A stretch of 13,558 nucleotides of DNA from IMG/VR virus record IMGVR_UViG_2690315994_000032; one strand, 5' to 3'. This stretch comes from a virus (Duplodnaviria > Heunggongvirae > Uroviricota > Caudoviricetes). Shown piece after piece: positions 1 to 13,558 of this stretch. A model generated the notes under the pieces. The model had not been told where the DNA came from. It did not search any database and worked only from the letters and a program-made list of their open reading frames with translations. Made by a program: the position numbers and the translations under genes. Numbering within the stretch: position 1 is the stretch's first letter; each line of letters starts with the position of its first letter.

Positions 1-483
1 ATGACGAAGAAAAAAGCACATAAACCTGGTTCAGCGACCATCGCGCTTAACAAGCGCGCCCGTCACGAATACTTTATTGAAGAAGAGTTCGAAGCGGGAC
101 TTGCCCTGCAAGGCTGGGAAGTTAAATCCCTGCGCGCAGGAAAAGCCAATATTAGCGACAGCTATGTCCTTCTGCGCGACGGAGAAGCGTTCCTGTTTGG
201 CGCAAACATCACGCCAATGGCTGTGGCTTCTACGCATGTGGTGTGCGATCCTACCCGTACCCGCAAGTTACTTCTCAACCAGCGCGAACTTGATTCGTTG
301 TACGGTCGCGTCAATCGAGAAGGCTATACCGTAGTGGCGCTCTCCCTGTACTGGAAAAATGCCTGGTGCAAAGTGAAAATCGGCGTCGCCAAAGGTAAGA
401 AACAGCACGATAAACGTTCAGATATCAAAGAACGCGAATGGCAGGTGGATAAAGCGCGTATCATGAAAAACGCCCACCGTTAA
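1..483 (+). CDS. smpB: SsrA-binding protein SmpB (trans-translation cofactor)
   Basis: Complete 160-aa ORF, ATG at 1 to TAA at 481-483. Translation ([48 protein letters not shown]...) is recognisable as enterobacterial SmpB, and it sits directly upstream of the tmRNA gene as in E. coli. Confidence 0.97.
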
Positions 484-697: not shown

Positions 698-1060
698 GGG
701 GCTGATTCTGGATTCGACGGGATTTGCGAAACCCAAGGTGCATGCCGAGGGGCGGTTGGCCTCGTAAAAAGCCGCAAAAAATAGTCGCAAACGACGAAAA
801 CTACGCTTTAGCAGCTTAATAACCTGCTTAGAGCCCTCTCTCCCTAGCCTCCGCTCTTAGGACGGGGATCAAGAGAGGTCAAACCCAAAAGAGATCGCGT
901 GGAAGCCCTGCCTGGGGTTGAAGCGTTAAAACTTAATCAGGCTAGTTTGTTAGTGGCGTGTCCGTCCGCAGCTGGCAAGCGAATGTAAAGACTGACTAAG
1001 CATGTAGTACCGAGGATGTAGGAATTTCGGACGCGGGTTCAACTCCCGCCAGCTCCACCA
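698..1060 (+). ncRNA. ssrA: tmRNA (transfer-messenger RNA, SsrA)
   Basis: 363-nt sequence starting GGGGCTGATTCTGGATTCGACGGG and ending GGTTCAACTCCCGCCAGCTCCACCA. It has the tRNA-like acceptor/T-arm ends and an internal tag frame, and matches the E. coli tmRNA as I recall it. Confidence 0.96.
787..819 (+). other. tmRNA tag-peptide reading frame (resume codon GCA; encodes ANDENYALAA, stop TAA)
   Basis: GCA AAC GAC GAA AAC TAC GCT TTA GCA GCT TAA read directly from the sequence inside ssrA; this is the canonical enterobacterial degradation tag. Confidence 0.9.
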
Positions 1061-1070
1061 AATAAATCAA

Positions 1071-1099
1071 GGGGTTACGTGAAAGCGTAGCCCCTTTTT
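1071..1099 (+). terminator. Rho-independent terminator downstream of ssrA
   Basis: GC-rich hairpin GGGGTTACG-tgaaag-CGTAGCCCC followed by TTTTT, 10 nt after the tmRNA 3' CCA. Confidence 0.75.
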
Positions 1100-1118
1100 C
1101 TTAGGTAGTGGCGGCAAA

Positions 1119-1157
1119 ATGGCGACAGACTTTTGCGTCCATCTTGCCTGTCGCCAT
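1119..1157. repeat. Perfect 10-bp inverted repeat ATGGCGACAG-N19-CTGTCGCCAT (candidate operator or structured leader)
   Basis: Arms at 1119-1128 and 1148-1157 are exact reverse complements, read directly. The element ends 27 bp upstream of the ATG of the 160-aa ORF. Confidence 0.5.
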
Positions 1158-1183
1158 CTTGAAATCATGCAAAGAGGTTTGAC

Positions 1184-1666
1184 ATGGAAGAACTTCACTT
1201 TGTTTACATCAATGCAAATGGTCGTATCGGTGTTCACTCAATACAGAGCATCAGTTATAGCGAAAATCACATACAGGGCATTTGTAAGAACACCGATCGA
1301 ATAAAAACCTTCCGAAAAGACCGCATTCTTAAACAATACGATTCACAAGAACAAGCCATTCAGGAATGCGCGTCATTCCTCCCCGAAAACTACTCACATC
1401 TCACTAAGCAGTCAGGTCCGAAAAAAAATACATTCGATGTGTGTTTCACCGGATTTAAGAAAGCAGATAAAGAAAGGTTGGTTGATAAGGCGAATGAACA
1501 AGGATTAACGGTAAGAACATCTGTAACCCAAAACCTTCAGATGCTCTGTTGCGGTTACAATGCAGGCCCATCAAAAGTATCGGCAGCCAGGATGAAAGGC
1601 ACTATCATCATAGATGAGCCTGGCTTTATACATTTTCTTGAAACGGGTGAGATCCCAGATGAATAA
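1184..1666 (+). CDS. Hypothetical 160-aa protein with WYL-like N-terminal and BRCT-like C-terminal domains (accessory/cargo gene at the prophage end)
   Basis: ORF with good SD (AAGAGG at 1172-1177, 6-nt spacer to ATG 1184). Visibly AT-rich compared with flanking genes. N-terminal segment YINANGRIGVHSIQSISYSENHIQGICKNTDRIKTFRKDRI fits the WYL-domain pattern; C-terminal segment FDVCFTGF...GLTVRTSVTQNLQMLCCGYNAGPSKVSAARMKGTIIIDEPGF fits a LigA-type BRCT motif. Domain calls are by motif recognition only. Confidence 0.7.
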   Translation: MEELHFVYINANGRIGVHSIQSISYSENHIQGICKNTDRIKTFRKDRILKQYDSQEQAIQECASFLPENYSHLTKQSGPKKNTFDVCFTGFKKADKERLVDKANEQGLTVRTSVTQNLQMLCCGYNAGPSKVSAARMKGTIIIDEPGFIHFLETGEIPDE

Positions 1667-1694
1667 AAACCTGCCGTAGCAGGTTCTCTTTCTT
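1665..1694. terminator. Bidirectional rho-independent terminator between convergent ORF160 and ogr
   Basis: Hairpin ACCTGC-cgta-GCAGGT (1669-1684) flanked by an A-run upstream and a T-rich run downstream, placed exactly between the two convergent stop codons. Confidence 0.6.
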
Positions 1695-1911
1695 AAAAAT
1701 TCATATGGCCCTGACCACCTGGCAATGGATGTGGAGGGGCTGTGGCAATCACTGCAGGTGTCACAATAAACCGGACCACTGTTTCATGGGTAACAAAAGT
1801 GCTCCCGCAGTTAATATTTTGGCACTGGCAGTAACGCTCTTTGGTGCTTTCTGTTACTTGAAAACTGCTCCTTGTGTGCGCCGCATGACCACACTTTGGA
1901 CAATTCATCAT
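1693..1911 (-). CDS. ogr: Ogr/Delta-family zinc-finger late-gene transcriptional activator
   Basis: Translation MMNCPKCGHAAHTRSSFQVTESTKERYCQCQNINCGSTFVTHETVVRFIVTP...PHPLPGG has the C-x2-C...C-x4-C zinc-finger arrangement and length (about 72 aa) of P2 Ogr. The six-frame ORF extends to 1956, but the MM start at 1911/1908 matches the Ogr N-terminus. Confidence 0.85.
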   Translation of the reverse strand: MMNCPKCGHAAHTRSSFQVTESTKERYCQCQNINCGSTFVTHETVVRFIVTPAVIATAPPHPLPGGQGHMNF

Positions 1912-1979
1912 ATCCAGATCCCTACCTTTGCTATCAGAATCATTGCAATGATACACAAGATATCAATATTGAGAACCAT

Positions 1980-3080
1980 TTATTCCATTTCAAGATCACT
2001 AATTTTCACTTCAAGTTCAATACTGGTCGTAAAACCGTTATCCGGGCTGACGGTATGTGTCAGAGTCGTAATGGTCCATTCCGCATCATCTATTGGCTGT
2101 TTAAAGCCACTGACCTTCACAGGCATTTCCGTGTAGAGATCTGCCCGACCTTCCGCCAGTTGTAGCGAGAATGACGCAACACCGCGTTGCAGGCGTTCCC
2201 ACTGCATTTTCGCCGCTCGTTCGGCGTTGCTCCGGTTGGCATAAGTGCGATTAAGTACCAGCACGTTTTCATCCGTCCCCACCAGATAATCGCCCTGCTT
2301 CGCTTCCGGCTCTTTCTTCTGCTTCTTAGTTCTGCGCTTACGCTTCACCGTGGTGCTTTCTTTCTTCGCGGGTTCGCGGGTATGCAACCAGCTGGCAATG
2401 ACGCCCGTATAGGCTCCGCGATCTGCCAGGGTAAAGCGGTGACTGTCGCCGTCCTTACGCGTGATAGTGATCACCGGCAGTGGTTTACCGCTGGCGCTTT
2501 TGCCCTGTCCCTGCCGGATGAATAACAGATTGCCATTTTTCACCGATGCAATAGCACCGTACTGGCGCGCCAGTCGCATCAGAAAACTGCCGTCACTCTC
2601 ATTGGTCTGGTCTATATGTTCCACGGGTTTATCTGACAGGTCTTTACCCAATGCCATCTTCAGTTTGTGCCGTGCAGCTATTTCCTTCACCACTTCCCCA
2701 ACGGTGGTCTTGTGCCACGACTTTTCACGGCGGGTATTCAGCGTTTCACGAAAATCAGCACTTCGCGCCCGGATAGTCAGGCGGTCCGGTGCGCCAGTGT
2801 GTTCAATCTCGTCCACCGTGAATGCCCCTTTCGGGAAAAGCGGCTGCCCCTTCCAGCCCAGCGCCAGCGTAATAACCGCACCACGGCGCGGCAGCACGAT
2901 TTTTCCGTCGGCGTCGTCCAGCTCCAGATCAAGCTGGTCTGCTTCAAAGCCCCGATTGTCCGTCAGCGTCAAACTCATCAGGCGGTTATCCAGCACAGTG
3001 GTGATATCCCTGCCCTCAATACTGATGCTGAATGCGGGAGTTTTGTTGCCTTTGTTAAGCAGTTCAGAGCTGAAATTCAC
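1980..3080 (-). CDS. D: Phage late control / tail protein D (P2 gpD family)
   Basis: 366-aa ORF at the position and orientation expected after U in P2 synteny. Start is GTG at 3080-3078, overlapping the U stop as GTGA, with GGGAGGG SD upstream. Family assignment by recall of gpD-like sequence features. Confidence 0.85.
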   Translation of the reverse strand: MNFSSELLNKGNKTPAFSISIEGRDITTVLDNRLMSLTLTDNRGFEADQLDLELDDADGKIVLPRRGAVITLALGWKGQPLFPKGAFTVDEIEHTGAPDRLTIRARSADFRETLNTRREKSWHKTTVGEVVKEIAARHKLKMALGKDLSDKPVEHIDQTNESDGSFLMRLARQYGAIASVKNGNLLFIRQGQGKSASGKPLPVITITRKDGDSHRFTLADRGAYTGVIASWLHTREPAKKESTTVKRKRRTKKQKKEPEAKQGDYLVGTDENVLVLNRTYANRSNAERAAKMQWERLQRGVASFSLQLAEGRADLYTEMPVKVSGFKQPIDDAEWTITTLTHTVSPDNGFTTSIELEVKISDLEME

Positions 3081-3562
3081 GACAGCAGCCCTCCCACCGT
3101 TTTACTGATATCGCTTAAGGCAGACGTTGCCGTGTCCTGCAGATTATTCAGTTGCGCACTGAGATCACCGAACATATCGGACAGGGATTCATCCACCCGT
3201 TTGAGCGACAGGGTGAACTCAATCCGGCGCGGCATACCGTCGCGGAAAAACTCCGTTTTAGTCTGATTCAGTCCCTCAATCACATACATGCCGTAAATCG
3301 TGCCGCTGCCTTCAATCAGGGGCCATGCTTTCCCCTGTTCTGCCATCTGCTCCAGTACCAGCAACGACAGCCTGCCGCCTGTTATCTCCGGCATAAGAAC
3401 ACCAGAAAGCGTCAGCATGTCGTTGTCCGGTCCCAGAAACTGCGTGGACGGACGTCGGTTGACCCGGCTGTTTGCCGCATGTCGCCAGCTGCGTTGATAC
3501 TGCAGTTCCTGATACGGCACAGTGCGCAGCATAAACACGTACAATCCCAGCACCATCATCAT
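3077..3562 (-). CDS. U: Phage tail protein U (P2 gpU family)
   Basis: 161-aa ORF starting MMMVLGLYVFMLRTVPYQELQ, typical of P2 gpU. ATGA overlap with the T stop; located between T and D. Confidence 0.88.
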   Translation of the reverse strand: MMMVLGLYVFMLRTVPYQELQYQRSWRHAANSRVNRRPSTQFLGPDNDMLTLSGVLMPEITGGRLSLLVLEQMAEQGKAWPLIEGSGTIYGMYVIEGLNQTKTEFFRDGMPRRIEFTLSLKRVDESLSDMFGDLSAQLNNLQDTATSALSDISKTVGGLLS

Positions 3563-6500
3563 GCGTCGTATCCCCCCTGATCGCTGTAGTTACTCCTGGC
3601 TTTTGCCTTCAGCCTGCGTTCACGTTCATCAAGCTGGCGTGCCACCTCCCGCGCAATATCCTGCGCACTTTGTCCTGGCTGCGTCTGGATGATGATCTGC
3701 GTCGGTGCCTCAATCCGTTGAGCGGGCGGCACAGTGGCTGCACGACTCACCATCGCTTCGCCGCCTTTCGCGGGAAGTGCCAAAGGATGTAACGGCGGAA
3801 GCTCTGCAGGCGCGGCAGCAACGCCCATCATTCCGGCAACAACGGCAGCCAGTGCAGCTGTATTTCTCCGACTGGTCACGTTTGCCGGACCGTTGACAAT
3901 TTCAGGCCCGTTTTCACCGACAATGCCGAACTGCCCGCGCGGGATATAGCCGCCGCTGTCATACATCCCCGCAAAGCCATATCCCCATGACGGAAAACCA
4001 CCCGATGGCATCATCACTTTACCGTCTGCATTCACCGTCGCAGGTTGCTGACGCGTCACGCTTTCCGGCAGTTTCGCCTTTGCAGCCTCTTTACTGACAA
4101 TACCGAGTTTCTCCAGCAACCAGGAAACGCCGGATTTCAGGGAGTCCAACGGATGCATGACCATATTCAGCCCTTCCGCCAGTGCCTCCCCGAATCGTCG
4201 CCCCATTGCCGCTGCGCTCTGCAGTTCGGCAGAGGTCGACTTAACAGGCGTCAGCAGATCAGTAAACCAGCCCCACAACGCCTGTACTTTGTCGCCAATC
4301 CACTGGAACACGGGCTTAAGCGGTTCGAATGCAGCACTGATGGGACCTGCCGCCGCTTTGAATCCTTCCACCACGCCACCGAGAAATGCGGTGATGGGTT
4401 GCCAGTATTTCCAGACAACCAGCGCCACGCCCGCCAGTGCAGTAACCACAAGACCTATCGGACTGAGCAGAGCACCTAACAGACCAGATACGGCATACAG
4501 GGCAACGCGCAGCATCGCCAGCGGACCGGATGCCAGCACACGCAGCACCGCGCCTGCGGCAGCCAGTCCACCGCGTAGTGCTGCCAGTGGATTCATAAAC
4601 ATCACAGCAACCGCACGTAAACCGGATAATCCAGACCGCAACAGTGCAACCGGCACACCTGCTACAGTTTTCAGGACATTCCCCGTCAGTGATGCGGTGC
4701 GGCGCAAAGACGACAACGGCGCAGTAAGTAAACCCGCTGCGTTGCCCGATGAAGCAAGCCCGCGTCGCAGCAGTGCCAGTGGAGCGCCAGCTAACCAGGA
4801 CAACGCGCTGCTGGTTCGTGTTACTGCTGCCGTAACGGAAGGTAACGTTTTGATACCCAGCACAGAGAATCCCAGACGGATGACTGCCAGCGGCCCCAGC
4901 ACTGCAGCCAGCGCCACCGCTAAGGTGCCGAGGCCTACGGTAACCGCAGCCACAACAGCCGCTACTTTCATCAGTGTGCCTGTCAGTTCCGGGTTAGCTT
5001 CCACCCAGCGGCGCAACGCCCCCGTGATGCTTTTTACCGTGTACAGAATATCCATCAGCGGCTGGCGCAGCGTTTCGCCCAGGCTGCTGAAGGTGTTCTG
5101 CGCTCCGGTTTTGACCAGCAACCACTGAGCGGAAAGTGAGTCTTTGTTGATGTCGGATTCTTTCTGCATGGAACCGAGCGCATCATTGCCCGCTGTCAGT
5201 TTTAGCTGGCGCTGCAGTTCCGGAAGGTTGTTTGCCAGTTTCGCTGCATCATCACCAAACTCTTTACCAAACAACATGGTCATGGCAGACAGACGCTTGT
5301 CCTGCGGCAGTGCGTTCACCTTCTCCAGCACACGCTGGATAGTTCCCATCGCATCCTTCGTCATCTGCTTTTCAATCACTTCAGGATTGAGTTTCAGCAG
5401 ATTCATCCCTTCAAAGAAACTCTTACTTTGCATGGTGGCAATGGACAATTCACGCACCATCGCGTTTGCTGCACTGGCAGCAACCTCCGGCGCAGCGCCC
5501 AGTGTCAGGAAGGTGGAACCCAGCGCCGCCGCTTTACGATAATCCAGACGATCTGCCACACCGCCCAGGCGTTGCATGACATCAATGATGTCTGACCCTT
5601 TCGACATGGCGTTATCATCCAGATAGTTCAGCGCATCACCGAGCTGTTCAATATTGCGGGTAGGGATTTTGTAGAGCTGGGCGATTTTCCCCAGACTTTC
5701 TGACAGTTCATCCGCTGGCAGCTCAAAGGCTGTTGCCGCCTTTGCTGCCGTGCTGGCGAAGGCCAGCAGGTCACGTTTCTGGTCTTCCCAGCTGTCGTCA
5801 GGATTTGCGACGTTCATGCGCGCACCACCTTCAACCAGTGCGGCAAAGTCCACAGCACCGTTTTCCATCGGCAACTGTTCGCTGGCAGCCTTGATGGCAT
5901 CCTGCATTTCGTAAAAACGCGCAGTGCGGTTGCCATTATCATCACGCAGACCATTGACCTGCTTTGCCACACCTTTCATGGCATCTTCCATGCTGGTATA
6001 GCTTTTTACTGCTGCCATCACTGGCGCACCCATTGCCAGCCCTGCAGCCGTGGTAGTGGCTCCGGCTCCTGCGATGCGATCGCGCACTTCAAGCCGTCTT
6101 GAGTATTGTTCTCTGGCAGCGTTCATCCGTGCCTGTTGTTCACCCAGACGTTTAAGTGCTTTTTGCTGGCCCTCCAGTGCCTGCCTTGTTTCTTCAGCAT
6201 TTTTCTTAAGTTCTCGCTGGGCACTACTGAGTTGTCTGGTATCAATCCCTGATTCTTTAAGTGCCTGACGTTGTCTCTGGACCGCCCCCAACAAGCCGTT
6301 ATAGGTCTGCTGAAGTTCCTGTACTCGTGTTTTGGCCTGACTGAATAACTTTGCCTGCGCGGCGGTTGGCCTGTTAGTGGCAGCAAATTGTGTGGCGAGT
6401 TTTGCCGCCTCTTCGCGGGCTGCGTTCAGGTTGTTGGCTGTTATGGCTAGTTGCGAGCGCGTCTTGCGAAATTCATCAATTCTGCCAGCCTGCTTATTCA

Positions 6501-6636
6501 GTTCTTTGAGGCTGTTTCGGGTATACTGAATTGCGCCAGCCAGCTCTTTCGAACTGGCCTGTGCAACACGGAATGGGCGGGTGAGTTTGTCAACCGCATT
6601 AAGAATGACCTGCAGCCGCAGGTTGTTATCACTCAT
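3559..6636 (-). CDS. T: Tail tape measure protein (P2 gpT family)
   Basis: 1025-aa ORF. N-terminal half is coiled-coil-like (Q/A/K/E/R-rich heptad-like sequence), the central and C-terminal part carries hydrophobic Gly/Ala/Leu-rich repeats (…ALLRRGL…, …ALLRSGL…) and a GYGFAGMYDSGGYIPRGQFGIVGENGPE motif. Lies between E/E' and U. Confidence 0.9.
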   Translation of the reverse strand: MSDNNLRLQVILNAVDKLTRPFRVAQASSKELAGAIQYTRNSLKELNKQAGRIDEFRKTRSQLAITANNLNAAREEAAKLATQFAATNRPTAAQAKLFSQAKTRVQELQQTYNGLLGAVQRQRQALKESGIDTRQLSSAQRELKKNAEETRQALEGQQKALKRLGEQQARMNAAREQYSRRLEVRDRIAGAGATTTAAGLAMGAPVMAAVKSYTSMEDAMKGVAKQVNGLRDDNGNRTARFYEMQDAIKAASEQLPMENGAVDFAALVEGGARMNVANPDDSWEDQKRDLLAFASTAAKAATAFELPADELSESLGKIAQLYKIPTRNIEQLGDALNYLDDNAMSKGSDIIDVMQRLGGVADRLDYRKAAALGSTFLTLGAAPEVAASAANAMVRELSIATMQSKSFFEGMNLLKLNPEVIEKQMTKDAMGTIQRVLEKVNALPQDKRLSAMTMLFGKEFGDDAAKLANNLPELQRQLKLTAGNDALGSMQKESDINKDSLSAQWLLVKTGAQNTFSSLGETLRQPLMDILYTVKSITGALRRWVEANPELTGTLMKVAAVVAAVTVGLGTLAVALAAVLGPLAVIRLGFSVLGIKTLPSVTAAVTRTSSALSWLAGAPLALLRRGLASSGNAAGLLTAPLSSLRRTASLTGNVLKTVAGVPVALLRSGLSGLRAVAVMFMNPLAALRGGLAAAGAVLRVLASGPLAMLRVALYAVSGLLGALLSPIGLVVTALAGVALVVWKYWQPITAFLGGVVEGFKAAAGPISAAFEPLKPVFQWIGDKVQALWGWFTDLLTPVKSTSAELQSAAAMGRRFGEALAEGLNMVMHPLDSLKSGVSWLLEKLGIVSKEAAKAKLPESVTRQQPATVNADGKVMMPSGGFPSWGYGFAGMYDSGGYIPRGQFGIVGENGPEIVNGPANVTSRRNTAALAAVVAGMMGVAAAPAELPPLHPLALPAKGGEAMVSRAATVPPAQRIEAPTQIIIQTQPGQSAQDIAREVARQLDERERRLKAKARSNYSDQGGYDA

Positions 6637-7065
6637 CGTTGGCCCCGCTTCTCTGAATCGCTTTATACCGCCATTCCAGCACTTCGGTCAGCGGCATAAC
6701 GTCAGTAACGGATGGCGGCCAGTGAAAGATGGTGGCGATATCAGCCACCAGATCGTCAACCGTCAGGCTGTCGGTAAACCGGCAAGCACCGACTTCTTCA
6801 ACAAAAAAGTGACAACCTCAACCGACATGGCAGTGAGATCTGCCGGGTCCATCTCTGCAATTTCCTGTGCAGTCAGTGCCGGACTGGAGATACGGGGGAT
6901 CACGGTCATCATCGCGTTCACATCCATATCCATAATGGCCTGCAGGCGTGTACCGCGCAGCGCACCGGACTGCGGTTTACGCAGCACAATTTCGGTGATT
7001 TCTGTTTTACCGCGCTTGATGGGAGTATCCAGTTGAATAGTCTTTTCAGTCTGCTTATCGCTCAT
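6629..7065 (-). CDS. E+E': Tail assembly chaperone E+E' made by programmed -1 ribosomal frameshift
   Basis: Hand translation of the -1 frame from the slippery site gives 58 stop-free codons (VEEVGACRFTDSLTVDDLVADIATIFHWPPSVTDVMPLTEVLEWRYKAIQRSGANDE) ending at TGA 6631-6629, just before the T start codon. Same architecture as P2 E/E'. Confidence 0.75.
6763..7065 (-). CDS. E: Tail assembly chaperone E (P2 gpE family), zero-frame product
   Basis: 100-aa ORF with AGGA SD upstream of ATG 7065, located between FII and T. Contains the slippery heptamer near its 3' end. Confidence 0.85.
   Translation of the reverse strand: MSDKQTEKTIQLDTPIKRGKTEITEIVLRKPQSGALRGTRLQAIMDMDVNAMMTVIPRISSPALTAQEIAEMDPADLTAMSVEVVTFLLKKSVLAGLPTA
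6802..6808 (-). other. Slippery heptamer T-TTT-TTG for the E/E' -1 frameshift
   Basis: Minus-strand TTTTTTG (plus-strand CAAAAAA at 6802-6808) in the zero frame of E, read directly. Confidence 0.75.
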
Positions 7066-7119
7066 TTTGCTGTCCTGTAAATTGGGTTCTGGCGCGGTAT
7101 CCCGCGCCGTTCAGATACA

Positions 7120-7635
7120 TCAGAGGCCGAGGGCGTTGCGGTGCGCTTCCATCAGGTCCACACCGTCCACAATTTCCACCATGTTGATAAGGTCCACTTC
7201 ATAGAGCACCTCACCATTGATGGTCAGCTTCGCGTAGCTGTTGGTACTGGTCACTTTGGTGGTGTTGCTTTCGCCCGTCTTCCACTCGCCGGAATCCACT
7301 TCTTTGTGACGTCCCAGCACCACAAGCTCCACGGCCTGCACTTCCCCGGTATCGTCACGCTGGATAGAGCCGGTAAAGCGCAGCTGAATGCCATCTACCG
7401 TGGCTTTGCCCATCTGCTTAAACAGCAGCAGTTCAGTACCACCAATGGAAAATTCTGTGTCCAGCGCACTGTCATCAAGCCCCAGATCCACATCCACTGC
7501 ACCCGGCATTCCGCCGCCGCGATACTTCTCATATTTGCGGGTGAATTTCGGCAGCGTCAGCGACTCAACGATCCCCTGCCAGTTGTTCCCGTCGTTAAAC
7601 AGGTTCAGATGTTTTAATTTGCGTGGTAAAGCCAT
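7120..7635 (-). CDS. FII: Tail tube protein (P2 gpFII family)
   Basis: 171-aa ORF beginning MALPRKLKHLNLFNDGNNWQG, immediately downstream of FI in the same orientation. Confidence 0.9.
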   Translation of the reverse strand: MALPRKLKHLNLFNDGNNWQGIVESLTLPKFTRKYEKYRGGGMPGAVDVDLGLDDSALDTEFSIGGTELLLFKQMGKATVDGIQLRFTGSIQRDDTGEVQAVELVVLGRHKEVDSGEWKTGESNTTKVTSTNSYAKLTINGEVLYEVDLINMVEIVDGVDLMEAHRNALGL

Positions 7636-7644
7636 GTTGTCCCC

Positions 7645-8817
7645 TTACGCGCTGACCTGGCTGGCGAAATTCACCAGGTACTGATCGGTGATGCGCTGGC
7701 GCAGCATCAGATTTTCAAGTGGCGGCACTGGCGTGTAGTCATAGTCGATGGTGAGTTTTCCGGCTTTCAGCGTGTCTTTGTCGTTCACCGACTCATCCAG
7801 CCAGCAATCACCACCAATGAGATAGCCCTGACTGACCAGGCTGCGTATTTTGGCGCGGATACCTTCGATAATGTCGCGGGCCAGCGACGGGTTAAGCGGT
7901 TTATCCACCGCCCACATGTGTGCTTCTGCCATTGTGTCCGTCAGCACCTGCGCCGTGCGGGTGTAGTTTTCGAAGGCAAAAAGCGGATCATCGCTCAGAC
8001 AGCGGGAACCCCAGAAGCGGAAACCGTCTTTACGCACAAGCGTGGTGACGTCGTTCTGGTTCAGCAGACCTGCATCGGTTGCCGGGTCCTGCAGATCCCA
8101 GAACACATCTGCAGAAATTCCGGTGACACCGTTCACGCCCACGTTGGACAGGCTTTTGTGCCACCCGGTCTGCTCATCAATTTTGGCACGCAGACCAAGT
8201 GCACGGGCGGTGGCATATGCCGTTGCTTCGGCATTCAGCACCGTGTCCCAGCCAGTAAAGTCGGGCCAGATCAGCATTCCTTCGCGCTGGCTGAAGTTTT
8301 CACGGTAAGTGATCTCCTCCTGTACCGTCTTGCAGCCATACGCTGACAGGTAAGCAAACCCACGCAGGCTTTGCGCCACGCTCAGCAACTCAGTCGCAAC
8401 GGCTTTGTTATCGTGACCTGGCACGCCGAGAATGCGCGGTTTAACGCCGAGCTGTGACTGGGCAGATAACAGAGCTTTCATGCCTGTTTTTTTACCTTCA
8501 GCAGTCACTGCGCCGATGATATTGGTCGTGGTTTCTTCTTCCGTTTCACCCTGCGGCACACGCACAACAACGGTCACGGGTTTTGCCTGGTCAGCGATGG
8601 CATCCAGCGAACGGGCCAGCGTGCCGGACTCACCCGCTTTACCGCTGGCAGTCAGCACATCAGTGATCAGCACAGGTTTGTTAAGAGGAAACATTTTTGC
8701 ATCGGCATCATCGCCCGTGCAGACCATGCCCACGATGGCGGTGCTCACCGTGGTAATGGATCGGGTGCCTTCGTTGACTTCAACAACGCGCACCCCGTGG
8801 TGGTAATCCTGAGCCAT
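7645..8817 (-). CDS. FI: Contractile tail sheath protein (P2 gpFI family)
   Basis: 390-aa ORF beginning [21 protein letters not shown]; perfect AGGAGG SD upstream of ATG 8817. First gene of the FI-FII-E-T-U-D block. Confidence 0.92.
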
Positions 8818-8893
8818 AGTGGCGAACCTCCTGATTGGATTAGGCTTCGCCCTATGTTGAAGTGATTGTGCCTGACAAACAGCTAAGCGCAGT

Positions 8894-8911
8894 TGTACCG
8901 TTATTCACACA
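8894..8911 (-). promoter_or_regulatory. Candidate Ogr-dependent late promoter element (TGT-N12-ACA dyad) upstream of FI
   Basis: Minus-strand TGTGTGAATAACGGTACA, read directly, about 80-95 bp upstream of the FI start. P2-family late promoters carry a TGT-N12-ACA activator site centred near -55. Confidence 0.55.
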
Positions 8912-8959
8912 AAATGACGGTATTTGTCTACTTGCAGGGATAATCAAAATAATGCTGAT

Positions 8960-9526
8960 TCAGGGGGATTCATTACTCTTATTTGCCGGAAATTTTCTAT
9001 AAATTGTGGAAACACCCACATCAAAAATCAGTGCAATACGCTGTCTTGATTCTCCGGCCTCGAGTAAACGCCCAATCTGTGCCCACTGTTCGGTGGTCAA
9101 CTTAGGACGGCGTCCACCTACTCTGCCTTTGGCACGAGCTGCAGCCAGCCCTGCCCTGGTACGTTCAACTATCAGTTCGCGTTCCATTTCAGCCAGGGCA
9201 CCCATGACATGAAAAAAGAAACGGCCCATTGGGGTACTGGTATCAATACTGTCAGTCAGGCTTCGGAAATTCACACCACGCTGGCGCAACTCCTCTATCA
9301 GCGTAACAAGATGCCGCATACTGCGCCCCAACCTGTCCAGCTTCCAGACAACCAGCGTGTCTCCTGCCGATAGTGTCCTGAGCAGCTTTTTCAGCCCCGG
9401 TCTGTCGGACTTAGTGCCACTGATTTTATCCTCAAAAATCCGCTCACATCCCGCGCAGTTCAGTGCATTACGTTGCAAATCGGTGTTCTGGTCATTTGTT
9501 GACACGCGTACATAGCCAATAAGCAT
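8960..9526 (-). CDS. pin: Serine DNA invertase, Hin/Gin/Pin family
   Basis: Translation MLIGYVRVSTNDQNTDLQRNALNCAGCERIFEDKISGTKSDRPGLKKLLRTLSAGDTLVVWKLDRLGRSMRHL... has the resolvase/invertase catalytic N-terminus (serine in YVRVST) and a C-terminal HTH, closely resembling e14 Pin. The six-frame ORF starts at 9532 (MIM…); ATG 9526 has better SD spacing (GGGGGA, 5 nt). Confidence 0.93.
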   Translation of the reverse strand: MLIGYVRVSTNDQNTDLQRNALNCAGCERIFEDKISGTKSDRPGLKKLLRTLSAGDTLVVWKLDRLGRSMRHLVTLIEELRQRGVNFRSLTDSIDTSTPMGRFFFHVMGALAEMERELIVERTRAGLAAARAKGRVGGRRPKLTTEQWAQIGRLLEAGESRQRIALIFDVGVSTIYRKFPANKSNESP

Positions 9527-9581
9527 GATCATCCCCCTGAATAAAAACCGGAGATGATGCCAGTTAGCCGTTATCTCTGCA

Positions 9582-9607
9582 TTTTCATAAACGTTGGTTT
9601 GGGAGAA
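9582..9607. other. 26-bp gix/pix-like invertase crossover site A (TTTTCATAAACG-TT-GGTTTGGGAGAA), immediately upstream of pin
   Basis: Imperfect 12-bp inverted half-sites around a 2-bp core, resembling the Hin-family consensus (TTATCnAAAACC-core-GGTTTTnGATAA). Shares an identical 15-bp stretch TTGGTTTGGGAGAAG with site B in gene H. Confidence 0.7.
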
Positions 9608-9651
9608 GATGAACCGCCCCGGTTTTCCTGGAGAGTGTTTTATCTGTGAAC

Positions 9652-10539
9652 TCAGGCTGCCAGATCATCGTTTCTGATGGAAGCATAATAAGCTTTTTCT
9701 GCTTCTGCCGGAGGGATATGACCCAGCCTTCCCAGCAATCGTCGATTGTTATACCAGTCCACCCACGTGAGTGTGGCCAGTTCCACTTCTGCACGGTTTT
9801 TCCAGCTCTTACGGTGTATTACCTCCGCTTTGTAAAGACCATTGATGCTCTCCGCCATCGCGTTGTCATACGAGTCACCTGTACTCCCTGTTGATGCCAG
9901 CAGTTTTGCTTCTTTTAGTCGCTCCGTATAGGCCAGTGATACATACTGAGAACCTTTATCACTGTGATGGACTGTGCCGGACGGCCGACGGGCCCACAAC
10001 GCCTGCTCCAGTGCATCCAGCACGAATGTCGTTTCCATAGACGATGAGACTCGCCACCCCACGATGCATCCGGCAAACACATCAATGATGAACGCCACAT
10101 AGACGAAGCCCTGCCATGTGCTGACGTAAGTAAAATCAGCCACCCACAGCTGGTCAGGACGTTCTGCCACGAACTGACGGTTTACGCGGTCGCCTGCGGA
10201 AACGGCTTTCCGGCTGACGGTAGTACGGACCTTTTTACCCCGGAGAACACCGGCAAGTCCCATAACCGCCATGAGGCGCGCCACTGTACATCTGGCCACC
10301 CTGATACCTTCGCGTAACAACTGGCGCCAGACTTTACGCACACCGTACACCTGATGATTTTCATCGTATACGCGCTGTATCTCTCTCTTCAGCCAGTCAT
10401 CGCGCTGCGCACGGGCACTGCGTTTATCAGGATGATGTCGCTGTTGCTGACAGTGGTAATACGTTGACGGGGCAATATGCAGTTCACTGCATACCGGTCC
10501 GACCCCGTACTGCTCACGCAGCTTATCCAGCAGTGGCAT
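9652..10539 (-). CDS. IS629 OrfB (DDE transposase catalytic subunit)
   Basis: 295-aa ORF with an integrase-core pattern (…WVADFTYV…, …HHSDKGSQY…, …DNAMAESINGLYKAE…). Its ATG overlaps the OrfA stop as TAATG, next to an A6 run, so an OrfAB fusion by frameshift is expected. Confidence 0.88.
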   Translation of the reverse strand: MPLLDKLREQYGVGPVCSELHIAPSTYYHCQQQRHHPDKRSARAQRDDWLKREIQRVYDENHQVYGVRKVWRQLLREGIRVARCTVARLMAVMGLAGVLRGKKVRTTVSRKAVSAGDRVNRQFVAERPDQLWVADFTYVSTWQGFVYVAFIIDVFAGCIVGWRVSSSMETTFVLDALEQALWARRPSGTVHHSDKGSQYVSLAYTERLKEAKLLASTGSTGDSYDNAMAESINGLYKAEVIHRKSWKNRAEVELATLTWVDWYNNRRLLGRLGHIPPAEAEKAYYASIRNDDLAA

Positions 10540-10865
10540 TATTTTTTCCAGAGGCGGTCGAACTCCGCCTTCGCAAAATAAGCGGAAGCCTGGCGAAGGA
10601 TATCGTTACTGCGGCGCAGTTCACGATTTTCACGTTCCAGCTCTTTCAGACGCTGACGTTCAGCGGTGGTGAATCCACCATCACCACTCCCGGTATCCCG
10701 CTCATGCTGACGAACCCACACACGCAGAGTCTCTGGCGTACAGCCAATCTTTGGGGCAATGGAACAAATTGCCGCCCATTGTGAGTCATATTCGCCCTGA
10801 CTTTCCAGAACCATACGAACTGCCCGTTGACGGACCTCGGGGGAAAAACGTGTATTTTTAGTCAT
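10539..10865 (-). CDS. IS629 OrfA (HTH transposase subunit)
   Basis: 108-aa ORF with HTH region and leucine-zipper-like C-terminus ([25 protein letters not shown]), typical of IS3-family OrfA. Confidence 0.88.
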
Positions 10866-10920
10866 CCTGTTTACCTCTTTCTCAGGGAGTTTAGTCTCCA
10901 GGATTCCCGGGGCGGTTCAC

Positions 10921-11403
10921 AGCTTCCTGCCTTATCTCGCCTGGGCGTTCTCTGTGGATCGCTGGGACGAGGGCTGGACAGAAAGCGTCAAACGCCAGGT
11001 AGTGAAGGATGCTTTTTATATTCATCAGCATAAAGGAACTACCAGTGCCGTGCGGCGGGTGGTGGAACCGTTCGGATTCCTGATCCGCATTATTGAGTGG
11101 TGGCAGACCGGAGAAACACCGGGCACGTTTCGCCTGGATATCGGCGTGCAGGACCAGGGCATCACTGAAGATACCTATCTGGAACTTGAGCGGCTGATAA
11201 GCGATGCCAAACCATGTAGCCGTCACATGATCGGCATGTCCATCAATCTGCAGACCAGCGGTCCGCATTGGGTGGGGGCCGCCAGCTATCTTGGCGAAGA
11301 AATCACGATCTATCCGTATATCAACGAAACAATTATTTCCGGCGGCACCGCGCATGAAGGCGGGGCGGTCCATGTTATTGACACAATGAGAGTGAATCCA
11401 TGA
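10921..11403 (+). pseudogene. I: Baseplate assembly protein I (P2 gpI family), 5'-truncated by IS629
   Basis: The reading frame is open from the first base after the IS end (SFLPYLAWAFSVDRWDEGW…) with no in-frame start upstream; the six-frame ORF begins only at an internal GTG (10954). The translation resembles the gpI region …LLPWLAWAFSVDRWDE… as I recall it, so the N-terminus is missing. Stop overlaps the H start as ATGA. Confidence 0.75.
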
Positions 11404-12956
11404 GCACAAAATTTTATACCCTGCTGACGGATATTGGCGCGGCGAAACTTGCCAGCGCCGCCGCGCTCGGTGTGCCGCTAAAAATTACCCATATGGCGGT
11501 GGGCGATGGCGGCGGAACATTGCCAACGCCGGACGCCAAGCAGACAGCATTGGTAAATGAGAAACGCCGGGCTGCGCTGAATATGCTCTATATCGACCCG
11601 CAGAACAGCAGCCAGATTATTGCTGAACAGGTGATCCCTGAAAACGAGGGCGGTTGGTGGATACGTGAAGTGGGCCTGTTTGATGAGTCCGGGGCATTGA
11701 TTGCCGTGGGCAACTGCCCGGAAAGCTATAAGCCGCAACTGGCTGAAGGCAGCGGGCGTACCCAGACCGTGCGCATGGTGCTGATTACCAGCAGCACGGA
11801 CAATATCACCCTGAAAATCGACCCTGCCGTAGTGCTGGCAACCCGCAAGTATGTGGATGACAAGGTACTGGAGCTGAAGGTGTACGTGGATGATCAGATG
11901 GCAAAACATCTTGCCGCACCGGACCCGCATTCACAGTATGCACCCAAAGAAAGTCCGACGTTTACCGGGACACCAAAAGCGCCAACTCCAGCGGCAGGGA
12001 ATAACACCACGCAGGTTGCGACCACCGCGTTTGTTCAGGCGGCACTGACGGCTCTTATTAATGGTGCGCCAGCCACGCTGGACACGCTGAAAGAAATAGC
12101 CGCAGCCATTAACAATGATCCGAATTTCAGTACCACCATTAACAATGCGCTGGCACTGAAAGCGCCGTTGTCGAGTCCGGCACTCACCGGAACGCCAACA
12201 GCCCCCACTGCTGCACAGTCGGTCAACAATACACAGATTGCCACCACGGCTTTTGTGAAATCGGCGATTGCAGCAATGGTAGGTTCTGCACCTGCGGCAC
12301 TGGATACACTGAACGAACTGGCGTCGGCGTTGGGGAATGATCCGAACTTTGCCACGACAATGCTTAATGCGCTGGCAGGTAAACAACCGCTGGACAATAC
12401 GCTGACTAATTTGAGTGGAAAGGATGTCGCTGGTCTTCTCGCATACCTTGGTTTGGGAGAAGGTTCTGCATTACCCGTTGGTGTGCCTGTTCCGTGGCCT
12501 TCCGCCACTCCGCCAACAGGCTGGCTGAAATGCAACGGTGCGGCTTTTTCTGCTGAAGAATACCCGGAACTGGCAAAGGCTTACCCGACCAATAAATTGC
12601 CTGATTTACGCGGTGAATTTATTCGTGGCTGGGATGACGGTCGCGGGATTGATACTGGTCGCGCTTTGCTTAATTGGCAGCCACACACAATTTTGGACCA
12701 TGCACACTATATGGAATTATGGACAGGGGACGGACTCGCCGCAGGAAGTGCACGGGAAGGAGTAAACCCAGGAATACTGGCTACATACGGTGACGGGGGA
12801 ATAGTTAAAACGGACGAACCCGGTCTTAAGGTGCCTTCCTCACTACGAGCTATTAGCTCTCGTAGTGTTAAACGTTATGGTGAAATTAGTGAAAATGTAG
12901 GTACAGAAACTCGTCCTCGTAACATCGCTTTTAATTATATTGTGAGGGCCGCATGA
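11400..12956 (+). CDS. H: Tail fibre protein (P2 gpH-like N-terminus; C-terminal tail-collar/receptor-binding module)
   Basis: 518-aa ORF. N-terminus MSTKFYTLLTDIGAAKLASAA…MAVGDGGG… is gpH-like. Middle has two tandem copies of the conserved fibre repeat (…TGTP.APT…NNTQ.ATTAFV…LDTL.E.A.A..NDPNF.TT..NALA.K.PL). C-terminus has collar motifs (GWLKCNGAAFSAEEYPELAKAYP…LPDLRGEFIRGWDDGRGID). Confidence 0.9.
   Translation: MSTKFYTLLTDIGAAKLASAAALGVPLKITHMAVGDGGGTLPTPDAKQTALVNEKRRAALNMLYIDPQNSSQIIAEQVIPENEGGWWIREVGLFDESGALIAVGNCPESYKPQLAEGSGRTQTVRMVLITSSTDNITLKIDPAVVLATRKYVDDKVLELKVYVDDQMAKHLAAPDPHSQYAPKESPTFTGTPKAPTPAAGNNTTQVATTAFVQAALTALINGAPATLDTLKEIAAAINNDPNFSTTINNALALKAPLSSPALTGTPTAPTAAQSVNNTQIATTAFVKSAIAAMVGSAPAALDTLNELASALGNDPNFATTMLNALAGKQPLDNTLTNLSGKDVAGLLAYLGLGEGSALPVGVPVPWPSATPPTGWLKCNGAAFSAEEYPELAKAYPTNKLPDLRGEFIRGWDDGRGIDTGRALLNWQPHTILDHAHYMELWTGDGLAAGSAREGVNPGILATYGDGGIVKTDEPGLKVPSSLRAISSRSVKRYGEISENVGTETRPRNIAFNYIVRAA
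11952..12395 (+). repeat. Tandem duplication (2 x about 222 bp, 74 aa) inside tail-fibre gene H
   Basis: Two successive units starting AGTCCGACGTTTACCGGGACACC (11952) and AGTCCGGCACTCACCGGAACGCC (12174), encoding SPTFTGTPKAPT… and SPALTGTPTAPT… with roughly 60% protein identity by eye. Unit boundaries are approximate. Confidence 0.6.
12436..12461. other. 26-bp gix/pix-like invertase crossover site B (TTCTCGCATACC-TT-GGTTTGGGAGAA) inside gene H at the constant/variable junction
   Basis: Same architecture as site A; right half-site and TT core are identical to site A. Encodes …LAYLGLGEG…, immediately before the collar/receptor-binding C-terminus, matching the Sc/Sv junction position in Mu/P1/e14-type switches. 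Confidence 0.7.
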
Positions 12957-13558
12957 TGAATAAAGCTGTATTAAATAGCGAACTCATTGCCATAAAAGCG
13001 GGAGATATTACCGTTTATAATTATGATGGTGAAACGCGGGAATATATTTCTACATCAACTGAATATCTCGCTGTCGGCGTCGGTATCCCGGCATGTTCCT
13101 GTCTGGATGCACCAGGTACACATAAAGCTGGTTATGCAATCTGTCGCTCTGTAGATTTAAATTCATGGGAATATGTGCCAGACCATCGCGGTGAAGTTGT
13201 CTATAGTACCGAAACGGGAGATACCAAAGAAATCACAGTTCCGGGTGATTACCCTGAAAATACAACCACTATCGCCCCATTAACGCCATACGATAAATGG
13301 GATGGTGAGAAATGGGTGACGGATACCGAGGCACAGCATAGCGCCGCACTAGACGCGGCAGAAGTAAAGCGCCAGTCGCTGATTGATGCTGCAATGGCTT
13401 CCATCAGTCTGATTCAACTGAAATTACAGGCCGGGCGGAAGCTGACGCAGCCAGAAAACACCCGACTTAACGCTGTGCTGGATTATATTGACGCGGTGAC
13501 GGCAACAGATACCAGCACAGCGCCGGACGTCATCTGGCCTGAACTGCCGGAGGCGTAG
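12953..13558 (+). CDS. G: Tail fibre assembly chaperone (P2 gpG / Mu U / Tfa family)
   Basis: 201-aa ORF with ATGA overlap to the H stop and GAGGG SD. The C-terminal region (…QSLIDAAMASISLIQLKLQAGRKLTQPENTRLNAVLDYIDAVTATDTSTAPDVIWPELP) is the conserved Tfa chaperone motif. The stop codon is the last 3 bases of the window. Confidence 0.88.
   Translation: MMNKAVLNSELIAIKAGDITVYNYDGETREYISTSTEYLAVGVGIPACSCLDAPGTHKAGYAICRSVDLNSWEYVPDHRGEVVYSTETGDTKEITVPGDYPENTTTIAPLTPYDKWDGEKWVTDTEAQHSAALDAAEVKRQSLIDAAMASISLIQLKLQAGRKLTQPENTRLNAVLDYIDAVTATDTSTAPDVIWPELPEA

Follow-up and report, generated by a model that had tools for sequence, protein, structure and literature searches.

The window analysed here is the whole 13,558-nucleotide (nt) stretch of IMG/VR virus record IMGVR_UViG_2690315994_000032 (Duplodnaviria; Heunggongvirae; Uroviricota; Caudoviricetes). 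Its positions 6629-7065, on the minus strand, are identified with high confidence as encoding the tail assembly chaperones E and E+E' of an Escherichia coli-type prophage that is P2-like (Elveevirus/Felsduovirus type) and integrated at ssrA. The zero-frame protein E would be accompanied by a longer protein, E+E', made by a programmed -1 ribosomal frameshift at the slippery heptamer T TTT TTG. The identification is based on the anatomy of the sequence, on homology in both reading frames and on the conserved register of the slip site, whereas the occurrence of the shift in this prophage, how often it takes place and what the proteins do are inferred. Coordinates are window positions throughout, all features of E and E' lie on the minus strand, and the positions of all features are collected in Table 1.

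Most ribosomes would stay in the zero frame of gene E as far as the stop at 6763, which would yield a Phage_TAC_7 protein of 100 amino acids (aa). A minority would slip 1 nt back on U UUU UUG while the P site holds tRNA-Phe paired to UUU and the A site holds tRNA-Leu paired to UUG. Both tRNAs would re-pair one base 5', on U UUU UU, the G at 6802 would be re-read, and decoding would proceed with GUU GAA GAA. Ribosomes shifted in this way would add 57 residues carrying the GpE domain and stop 8 nt inside T, and the product would be a 145-aa fusion that shares the N-terminus of E. By analogy with P2 and with G/GT of lambda (PMC5009743), E and the E part of E+E' may form a coat around T, the tape measure protein. 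On the same analogy, recruitment of the tail tube is presumed to be the task of the rarer E' domain, its partner in this contractile tail presumably being the tube protein, and neither E nor E+E' would be expected in the final virion.

Anatomy of the slip site and of the two reading frames

The protein encoded by gene E matches Pfam family PF10109 (Phage_TAC_7) with 67.5 bits (gathering cut-off 25, E = 1e-18) over profile positions 1-78 of 79. The family is described in Pfam as 'tail assembly chaperone proteins, E, or 41 or 14', and E is labelled 'tail assembly protein' in the records of Cartapus, a prophage of Escherichia coli LF82, and of E. coli TOK-001. A first-pass annotation, made from the letters of the DNA alone, had placed the heptamer T-TTT-TTG in the zero frame of E, and this is where it lies, at 6808..6802 and in the X XXY YYZ register required for tandem -1 slippage. 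Past the heptamer the zero frame was said to end after 12 codons, and 12 sense codons (LKKSVLAGLPTA) are indeed found there, followed by TGA. On the 5' side the -1 frame is closed 3 codons before the heptamer and is open from 6817. As it is closed at 6820..6818, a productive shift is possible only across about 18 codons, and the sole in-frame X XXY YYZ heptamer of E falls inside this zone.

From the heptamer onwards the -1 frame comprises 57 sense codons (VEEVGACRFTDSLTVDDLVADIATIFHWPPSVTDVMPLTEVLEWRYKAIQRSGANDE). The 58 codons of the first-pass annotation are reached once the stop is counted, and its interval of 6629-6808 spans the heptamer to the E' stop exactly. A stop in the -1 frame shortly after the heptamer, the finding that it had named as one that would speak against a frameshift, does not occur in these 57 codons. 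The E' segment matches Pfam family PF06528 (Phage_P2_GpE) with 65.5 bits (gathering cut-off 23, E = 2.9e-18) over the full profile (positions 1-37 of 37), so that each of the two frames carries a recognised domain. A search of PDB sequences with the fusion protein gave no match at E <= 1, and none of the NCBIfam models matched either E+E' or the 39-aa open reading frame (ORF) discussed below.

In the E+E' reading the G at 6802 is read twice, and the -1 codon following TTG is GTT. The predicted junction is VVTFL|VEEVGA, within the predicted junction peptide ...VVTFLVEEVGACR of the fusion. The junction had been given as VVTFLL-VEEVGA in the first-pass annotation, which is one Leu too many; this sequence is impossible by a -1 shift because it includes both the second TTG and the GTT that overlaps it. 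The E' frame had furthermore been described as ending just before the start of T. Its stop is found instead beyond the T ATG, with an overlap of 8 nt (ATGAGTGA) in which the E' stop begins 5 nt past the first base of that ATG (6636).

Comparison with P2 and conservation among relatives

P2 E+E' aligns with the predicted fusion at 48% identity over 139 residues (E = 2e-50). The alignment, proposed earlier as a check, proved to be free of gaps; in it the two heptamers fall on the same residue, and VVTFL is matched with VVGFL across the slip site. The two systems share the heptamer TTTTTTG and the -1 direction, the 57-codon E' ending 8 nt inside T (P2 E+E' ends at 19857 and T starts at 19850), the flanking genes FII upstream and T downstream, and the same Pfam domain in each frame. 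In the P2 record E+E' is a joined coding sequence (CDS) that 'shares amino terminus with gpE; -1 frameshift; essential tail protein'. The two differ in several lengths: E has 100 aa in the window and 91 aa in P2, the zero-frame tail past the slip site has 12 codons and 6, respectively, and T has 1025 aa and 815 aa. The window prophage, located at ssrA, also belongs to a genus other than that of P2 (Elveevirus/Felsduovirus-like). For the P2 E/E+E' pair of the FETUD operon the frequency of the fusion is reportedly about 10%. Two papers (PMC3091744; PMC3931495) place the P2 shift at TTTTTTG, give the lengths of E and E+E' as 91 aa and 142 aa, and describe the shift as conserved in P2-like phages.

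The P2 junction residue itself is ambiguous in the reference annotation. The join in RefSeq NC_001895 (19430..19685, 19685..19857) re-reads T after the G of the heptamer and makes residue 86 Phe (..GFL-F-AELGA), whereas in tandem slippage on T TTT TTG the base read twice would be G, which would place Val there in P2 E+E'.

Conservation was assessed in a comparative set of 16 sequences, made up of the window, P2 and 14 further phage loci (Peduoviridae and Vhmlvirus) from Salmonella, Klebsiella, Erwinia, Burkholderia, Pseudomonas, Ralstonia, Mannheimia, Stenotrophomonas, Vibrio, Citrobacter and an uncultured skin phage. All 16 possess an in-frame X XXY YYZ heptamer, and in all of them the -1 frame is open from the heptamer into the ADIAxIFHWPP...WR..A..RSG domain; in several relatives this frame opens only 0-3 codons 5' of the heptamer. 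In 15 of the 16 the heptamer is found where the TAC_7 domain ends, at the homologous hydrophobic-x-F-[L/F/M] position. Ten sequences have TTTTTTG and two have TTTTTTC, while TTTTTTT, CCCTTTC, AAATTTT and GGGAAAG are each found once. A motif that changes while its register is kept is what ribosomal tandem slippage would predict. The slip site is thus retained in 16/16 at 37-100% E+E' identity to the window (phage-collection search), as in tail chaperones of the G/GT type. The first-pass assignment to the conserved frameshift of P2-family (and G/GT-type) chaperones is borne out by this retention, by the domains in both frames, by the P2 alignment and by the gene order.

Coding constraint is also visible in the E' segment. 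Among the window, SopEPhi and Klebsiella ST11phi8.4, differences in the E'-only zone at position 3 of the -1-frame codons number 9, against 6 and 2 at positions 1 and 2, and in the second comparison 12, against 3 and 3. Immediately 3' of the heptamer, the first 9-15 nt (YTG CCG AAG NSG GC) are similar in enterobacterial, Burkholderia, Pseudomonas and Stenotrophomonas phages, and both frames are conserved there, as LPK[SR]A in frame 0 and AE.G in frame -1. Such conservation would fit a dual-coding constraint.

Close relatives of the pair are numerous. A 701-nt query (window 6500-7200) is 97-99.7% identical at the DNA level in Cartapus (LF82 prophage 4) and in the Klebsiella phage 4LV2017 group. 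For the E+E' protein, identity reaches 100% among Klebsiella phages and is 87% in SopEPhi. As a check of the population rather than of diversity, 80 IMG/VR contigs were picked solely for an identical E protein (100%). These contigs show differences of up to 11 nt across the 437-nt region; the heptamer TTTTTTG is present in 79 of them, and E' is interrupted in none. The one other contig has TTTTTTA, which is synonymous in frame 0, changes the first E' codon from Val to Ile and is still slippery.

The arrangement resembles G/GT of lambda in its two overlapping ORFs between the major tail/tube and tape measure genes, in a -1 shift that comes late in the first ORF, in the shared N-terminus and in having no obligatory 3' structure (PMC5009743, PMC3091744). 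It differs from G/GT in that there is no sequence similarity, that the lambda slip site is G GGA AAG and that the lambda tail is non-contractile. The conserved tail chaperone frameshift is said to form a general class. The -1 frameshifts of dnaX and of IS3-family elements follow the same tandem-slippage heptamer logic as the E site; they differ from it in their stimulatory elements, since no Rfam-detectable or thermodynamically unusual 3' structure is found at the E site.

Weighing of the alternative readings

Several points weigh against the reading of 6629-7065 as an E / E+E' pair that uses a frameshift. The bare heptamer occurs 2 times in the window against 3.0 expected, and by itself it is no rarer than chance would have it. 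No stimulatory element has been demonstrated at the site. The GTG at 6748 could in principle start E' on its own, and E' is annotated as a stand-alone ORF in Cartapus, in CP019275 (a plasmid), in RefSeq for E. coli TOK-001 (WP_000763311.1), in SopEPhi and in others. Finally, the prophage is rearranged, and its operon may no longer serve a productive phage.

The last of these points bears on whether the site is still in use. It is possible, if doubtful, that the heptamer and the open -1 frame are an inert relic, inherited but no longer expressed or selected in the rearranged prophage. Gene I is truncated and I'-H-tfa are inverted beside an insertion sequence (IS) element, and a search of 5426 complete E. 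coli genomes found neither IS junction. The genes from FI to D, however, are free of gaps and stops and belong to a segment (1016-9608) that is 99.84% identical to Cartapus over 8593 nt, so that decay is undetectable in them. A relic would moreover concern the present use of the site and not its identity.

Stimulatory elements were sought on both sides of the heptamer. For the 3' side, the 54 nt following the heptamer were folded in 15 sequences of the set, all but that of SopEPhi, which hardly differs from the window there. The window has a hairpin starting 8 nt past the heptamer with a folding energy of -13.5 kcal/mol, which equals that of shuffled sequence (z = -0.06), and none of the 15 downstream folds differs from shuffled sequence (z from -1.7 to +1.2). 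A compensatory change from GTCGGT/ACCGAC to GTCGGC/GCCGAC in a Klebsiella relative was considered and set aside, as it has no backing from the fold statistics. A permissive Rfam scan of 6500-7150 gave no match at the site, the only match being a chance small nucleolar RNA (E = 0.72). A 3' RNA stimulator is therefore not supported, being neither needed nor detectable at the E site. This agrees with reports on P2 and its Burkholderia relatives, for which PMC3091744 describes a 3' structure or downstream hairpin as absent.

For the 5' side, a Shine-Dalgarno (SD)-like GAGGT lies 6 nt from the heptamer, and a (G/A)AGGTG-type match of similar or greater strength is found 3-7 nt 5' of the heptamer in 9 of the 16 relatives. 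In dnaX the corresponding spacing is about 10 nt, longer than at the E site. The element is built from the less favoured codons GAG/AAG, which account for only 29-33% of the Glu/Lys codons in the tail genes of the window, and it overlaps conserved [E/K]-V residues. It may act as a modulator of shifting, or it may just reflect these conserved residues. That the frameshift is tuned by a family-specific 5' SD-like element of this kind, and/or that E' is also made alone from an internal GTG or ATG, is considered unlikely. If true, it would mean three products instead of the expected two.

A further reading, in which no frameshift takes place and E' is simply a separate 39-aa 'GpE family' gene starting from GTG 6748, is very improbable. 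An ATG or GTG is found at the aligned position in 12 of the 16 relatives, as this reading would have it, but the aligned codon is Ala in RSA1, Trp in Vp_MAR and Ile in both the Mannheimia phage and U2F1, so that 4 of the 16 have no canonical start (ATG/GTG/TTG) there. Ten start sites of the window were scored, including two alternative ones for the invertase, and the SD of GTG 6748 (-3.0 kcal/mol) is the weakest among them. The SD of the ATG of E itself is likewise weak (-4.0 kcal/mol), and the weakness at GTG 6748 is therefore not decisive. P2 E' is reported to be without a ribosome binding site (PMC3931495). A separate gene would also leave aside that in all 16 sequences the -1 frame is open back to the slippery heptamer, that the residues between heptamer and GTG (V-x-E-x-G...L.VDDL) are conserved, and that the P2 record itself, quoted above, has E+E' sharing its amino terminus with gpE. 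In records of the Cartapus, 4LV2017 and SopEPhi type, E' appears as a separate 39-aa CDS and not as a frameshift product. We conclude that this stand-alone CDS is an artefact of annotation pipelines that do not model the frameshift.

Transcriptional slippage, in which RNA polymerase would produce the fusion by adding one U in the U6 run, can hardly be credited: a T6 run is present and T7 runs occur in the relatives Smp131, Vp_MAR and U2F1, but efficient slippage by bacterial RNA polymerase requires runs of about 8-9 A or T, the relatives with CCCTTTC, AAATTTT and GGGAAAG have homopolymers of at most 4 nt and still keep the tandem-slippery register, and RNA polymerase has no reason to respect the frame-0 register X XXY YYZ that is found in 16/16.

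Chance remains to be set against the ribosomal frameshift. In the 13 genes of the window (about 3700 codons) there are 8 in-frame X XXY YYZ heptamers, which corresponds to about 0.04 expected per 18-codon productive zone, and only 8% of in-frame positions are followed by 57 or more open codons in the -1 frame. The Pfam match of the -1 translation together with the conservation among relatives rules chance out. Elsewhere in the window, a possible T-U fusion site, G GGG GGA (3571-3577, minus strand), lies in frame 3 codons before the T stop, and the -1 frame there runs 164 codons into U. It was rejected because G GGG GGA is the SD of U (CAGGGGGGA, -10.2 kcal/mol) and because P2 has no T/U overlap.

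The prophage around gene E

The minus-strand gene order is FI-FII-E-E'-T-U-D-ogr, with Pfam assignments of sheath, tube, TAC_7, tape measure, GpU and GPD (Table 1). Homology to Cartapus begins at 1016, within the 3' end of ssrA, and the phage thus supplies the last ~45 nt of ssrA, as is typical of an attL. From there to 9608 the match to Cartapus is gap-free, so that D, U, T, E/E', FII and FI are all intact.

Table 1. Positions of the features of the slip site and of its surroundings in the window
Feature	Position	Strand	Remarks
smpB	1-483		window starts within it
ssrA (transfer-messenger RNA, tmRNA)	698-1060		prophage integration site
D	3080..1980	-	Pfam GPD; ogr downstream
U	3562..3077	-	Pfam GpU
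Tape measure T	3559..6636	-	1025 aa; presumed client of E and E+E'; Pfam PhageMin_Tail, 1.3e-18, and annotation
Composite E+E' coding region	6629..7065	-	predicted 145-aa fusion (88+57 aa)
Gene E	6763..7065	-	zero-frame tail assembly chaperone, 100 aa; ATG 7065, TGA 6765..6763; ORF and Pfam
E' segment	6629..6802	-	VEEVGACRF...RSGANDE; -1 frame, 57 sense codons and TGA 6631..6629
39-codon GTG ORF	6629..6748	-	'GpE family phage tail protein' in public records; read here as C-terminal part of E'
E+E' stop / T start overlap	6629..6636	-	8 nt; T ATG at 6636..6634
Slippery heptamer T TTT TTG	6802..6808	-	zero frame of E; codons 86-88 = ACT TTT TTG
SD-like GAGGT	6815..6819	-	candidate modulator, 6 nt 5' of heptamer
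TGA closing the -1 frame	6818..6820	-	3 codons 5' of heptamer; -1 frame open from 6817
Tail tube FII	7120..7635	-	immediately 5' of E; Pfam Phage_tube, 1.2e-58
Sheath FI	8817..7645	-	Pfam
Gin/Pin-type invertase	9532..8960	-	
IS3-family element	9610-10919	-	1310 bp; 25-nt terminal inverted repeats
IS orfA	10865..10539	-	
IS orfB	10539..9652	-	-1 frame
ALIL pseudoknot	10468-10584	-	Rfam RF01497, full-length, 120.9 bits; spans orfA/orfB junction
Baseplate gene I	10954..11403	+	first 122 nt missing; TIGR01634 profile positions 50-138 only
Tail fibre gene H	11400..12956	+	
Tail fibre assembly gene	from 12953	+	

To the right of this segment the window departs from its relatives. I-H-tfa are uninterrupted in Cartapus, in the 4LV2017 group and in SopEPhi/Fels-2, whereas in the window this region contains both an IS3-family insertion and an inversion. 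The DNA beyond the IS, at 10920-13558, runs in the opposite orientation to that of the intact prophages Cartapus and TOK-001, and gene I has been truncated, 4 kb from E, by this IS-associated inversion. To judge from these genes, the tail module in its present form is very probably defective. The first-pass annotation had taken the slip site as an indication that the tail module was recently functional. The slip site does not imply this, and gene I is truncated, but the FETUD part is pristine and recent function is plausible, because of its near-identity to the active prophage Cartapus. Low-level packaging of Cartapus DNA is reported, although its virions were not seen (PMC9928086).

The rearranged region holds two further features. 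One is another programmed -1 frameshift site, at the orfA/orfB junction of the IS3-family element, for which, in contrast to the E site, an RNA stimulator is curated. An 18-nt crossover sequence of the tail-fibre inversion switch is found at 9591-9608 and at 12445-12462 in direct orientation, the orientation being inverted in TOK-001, and the host-range switch has probably been frozen by the IS-associated rearrangement.

The feature at 6629-7065 is already known: it is the ordinary recoding site of P2 E/E+E', carried here by a common lineage of prophages, and nothing about it is novel. It adds one more textbook instance of recoding and raises no new biological question. The lineage is very common, with at least 80 IMG/VR contigs that have an identical E, as well as many E. 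coli and Klebsiella genomes. Its main consequence is for annotation, in that the fusion is missing from protein databases and the 39-aa 'GpE family' CDS should be replaced by the 145-aa frameshift product.

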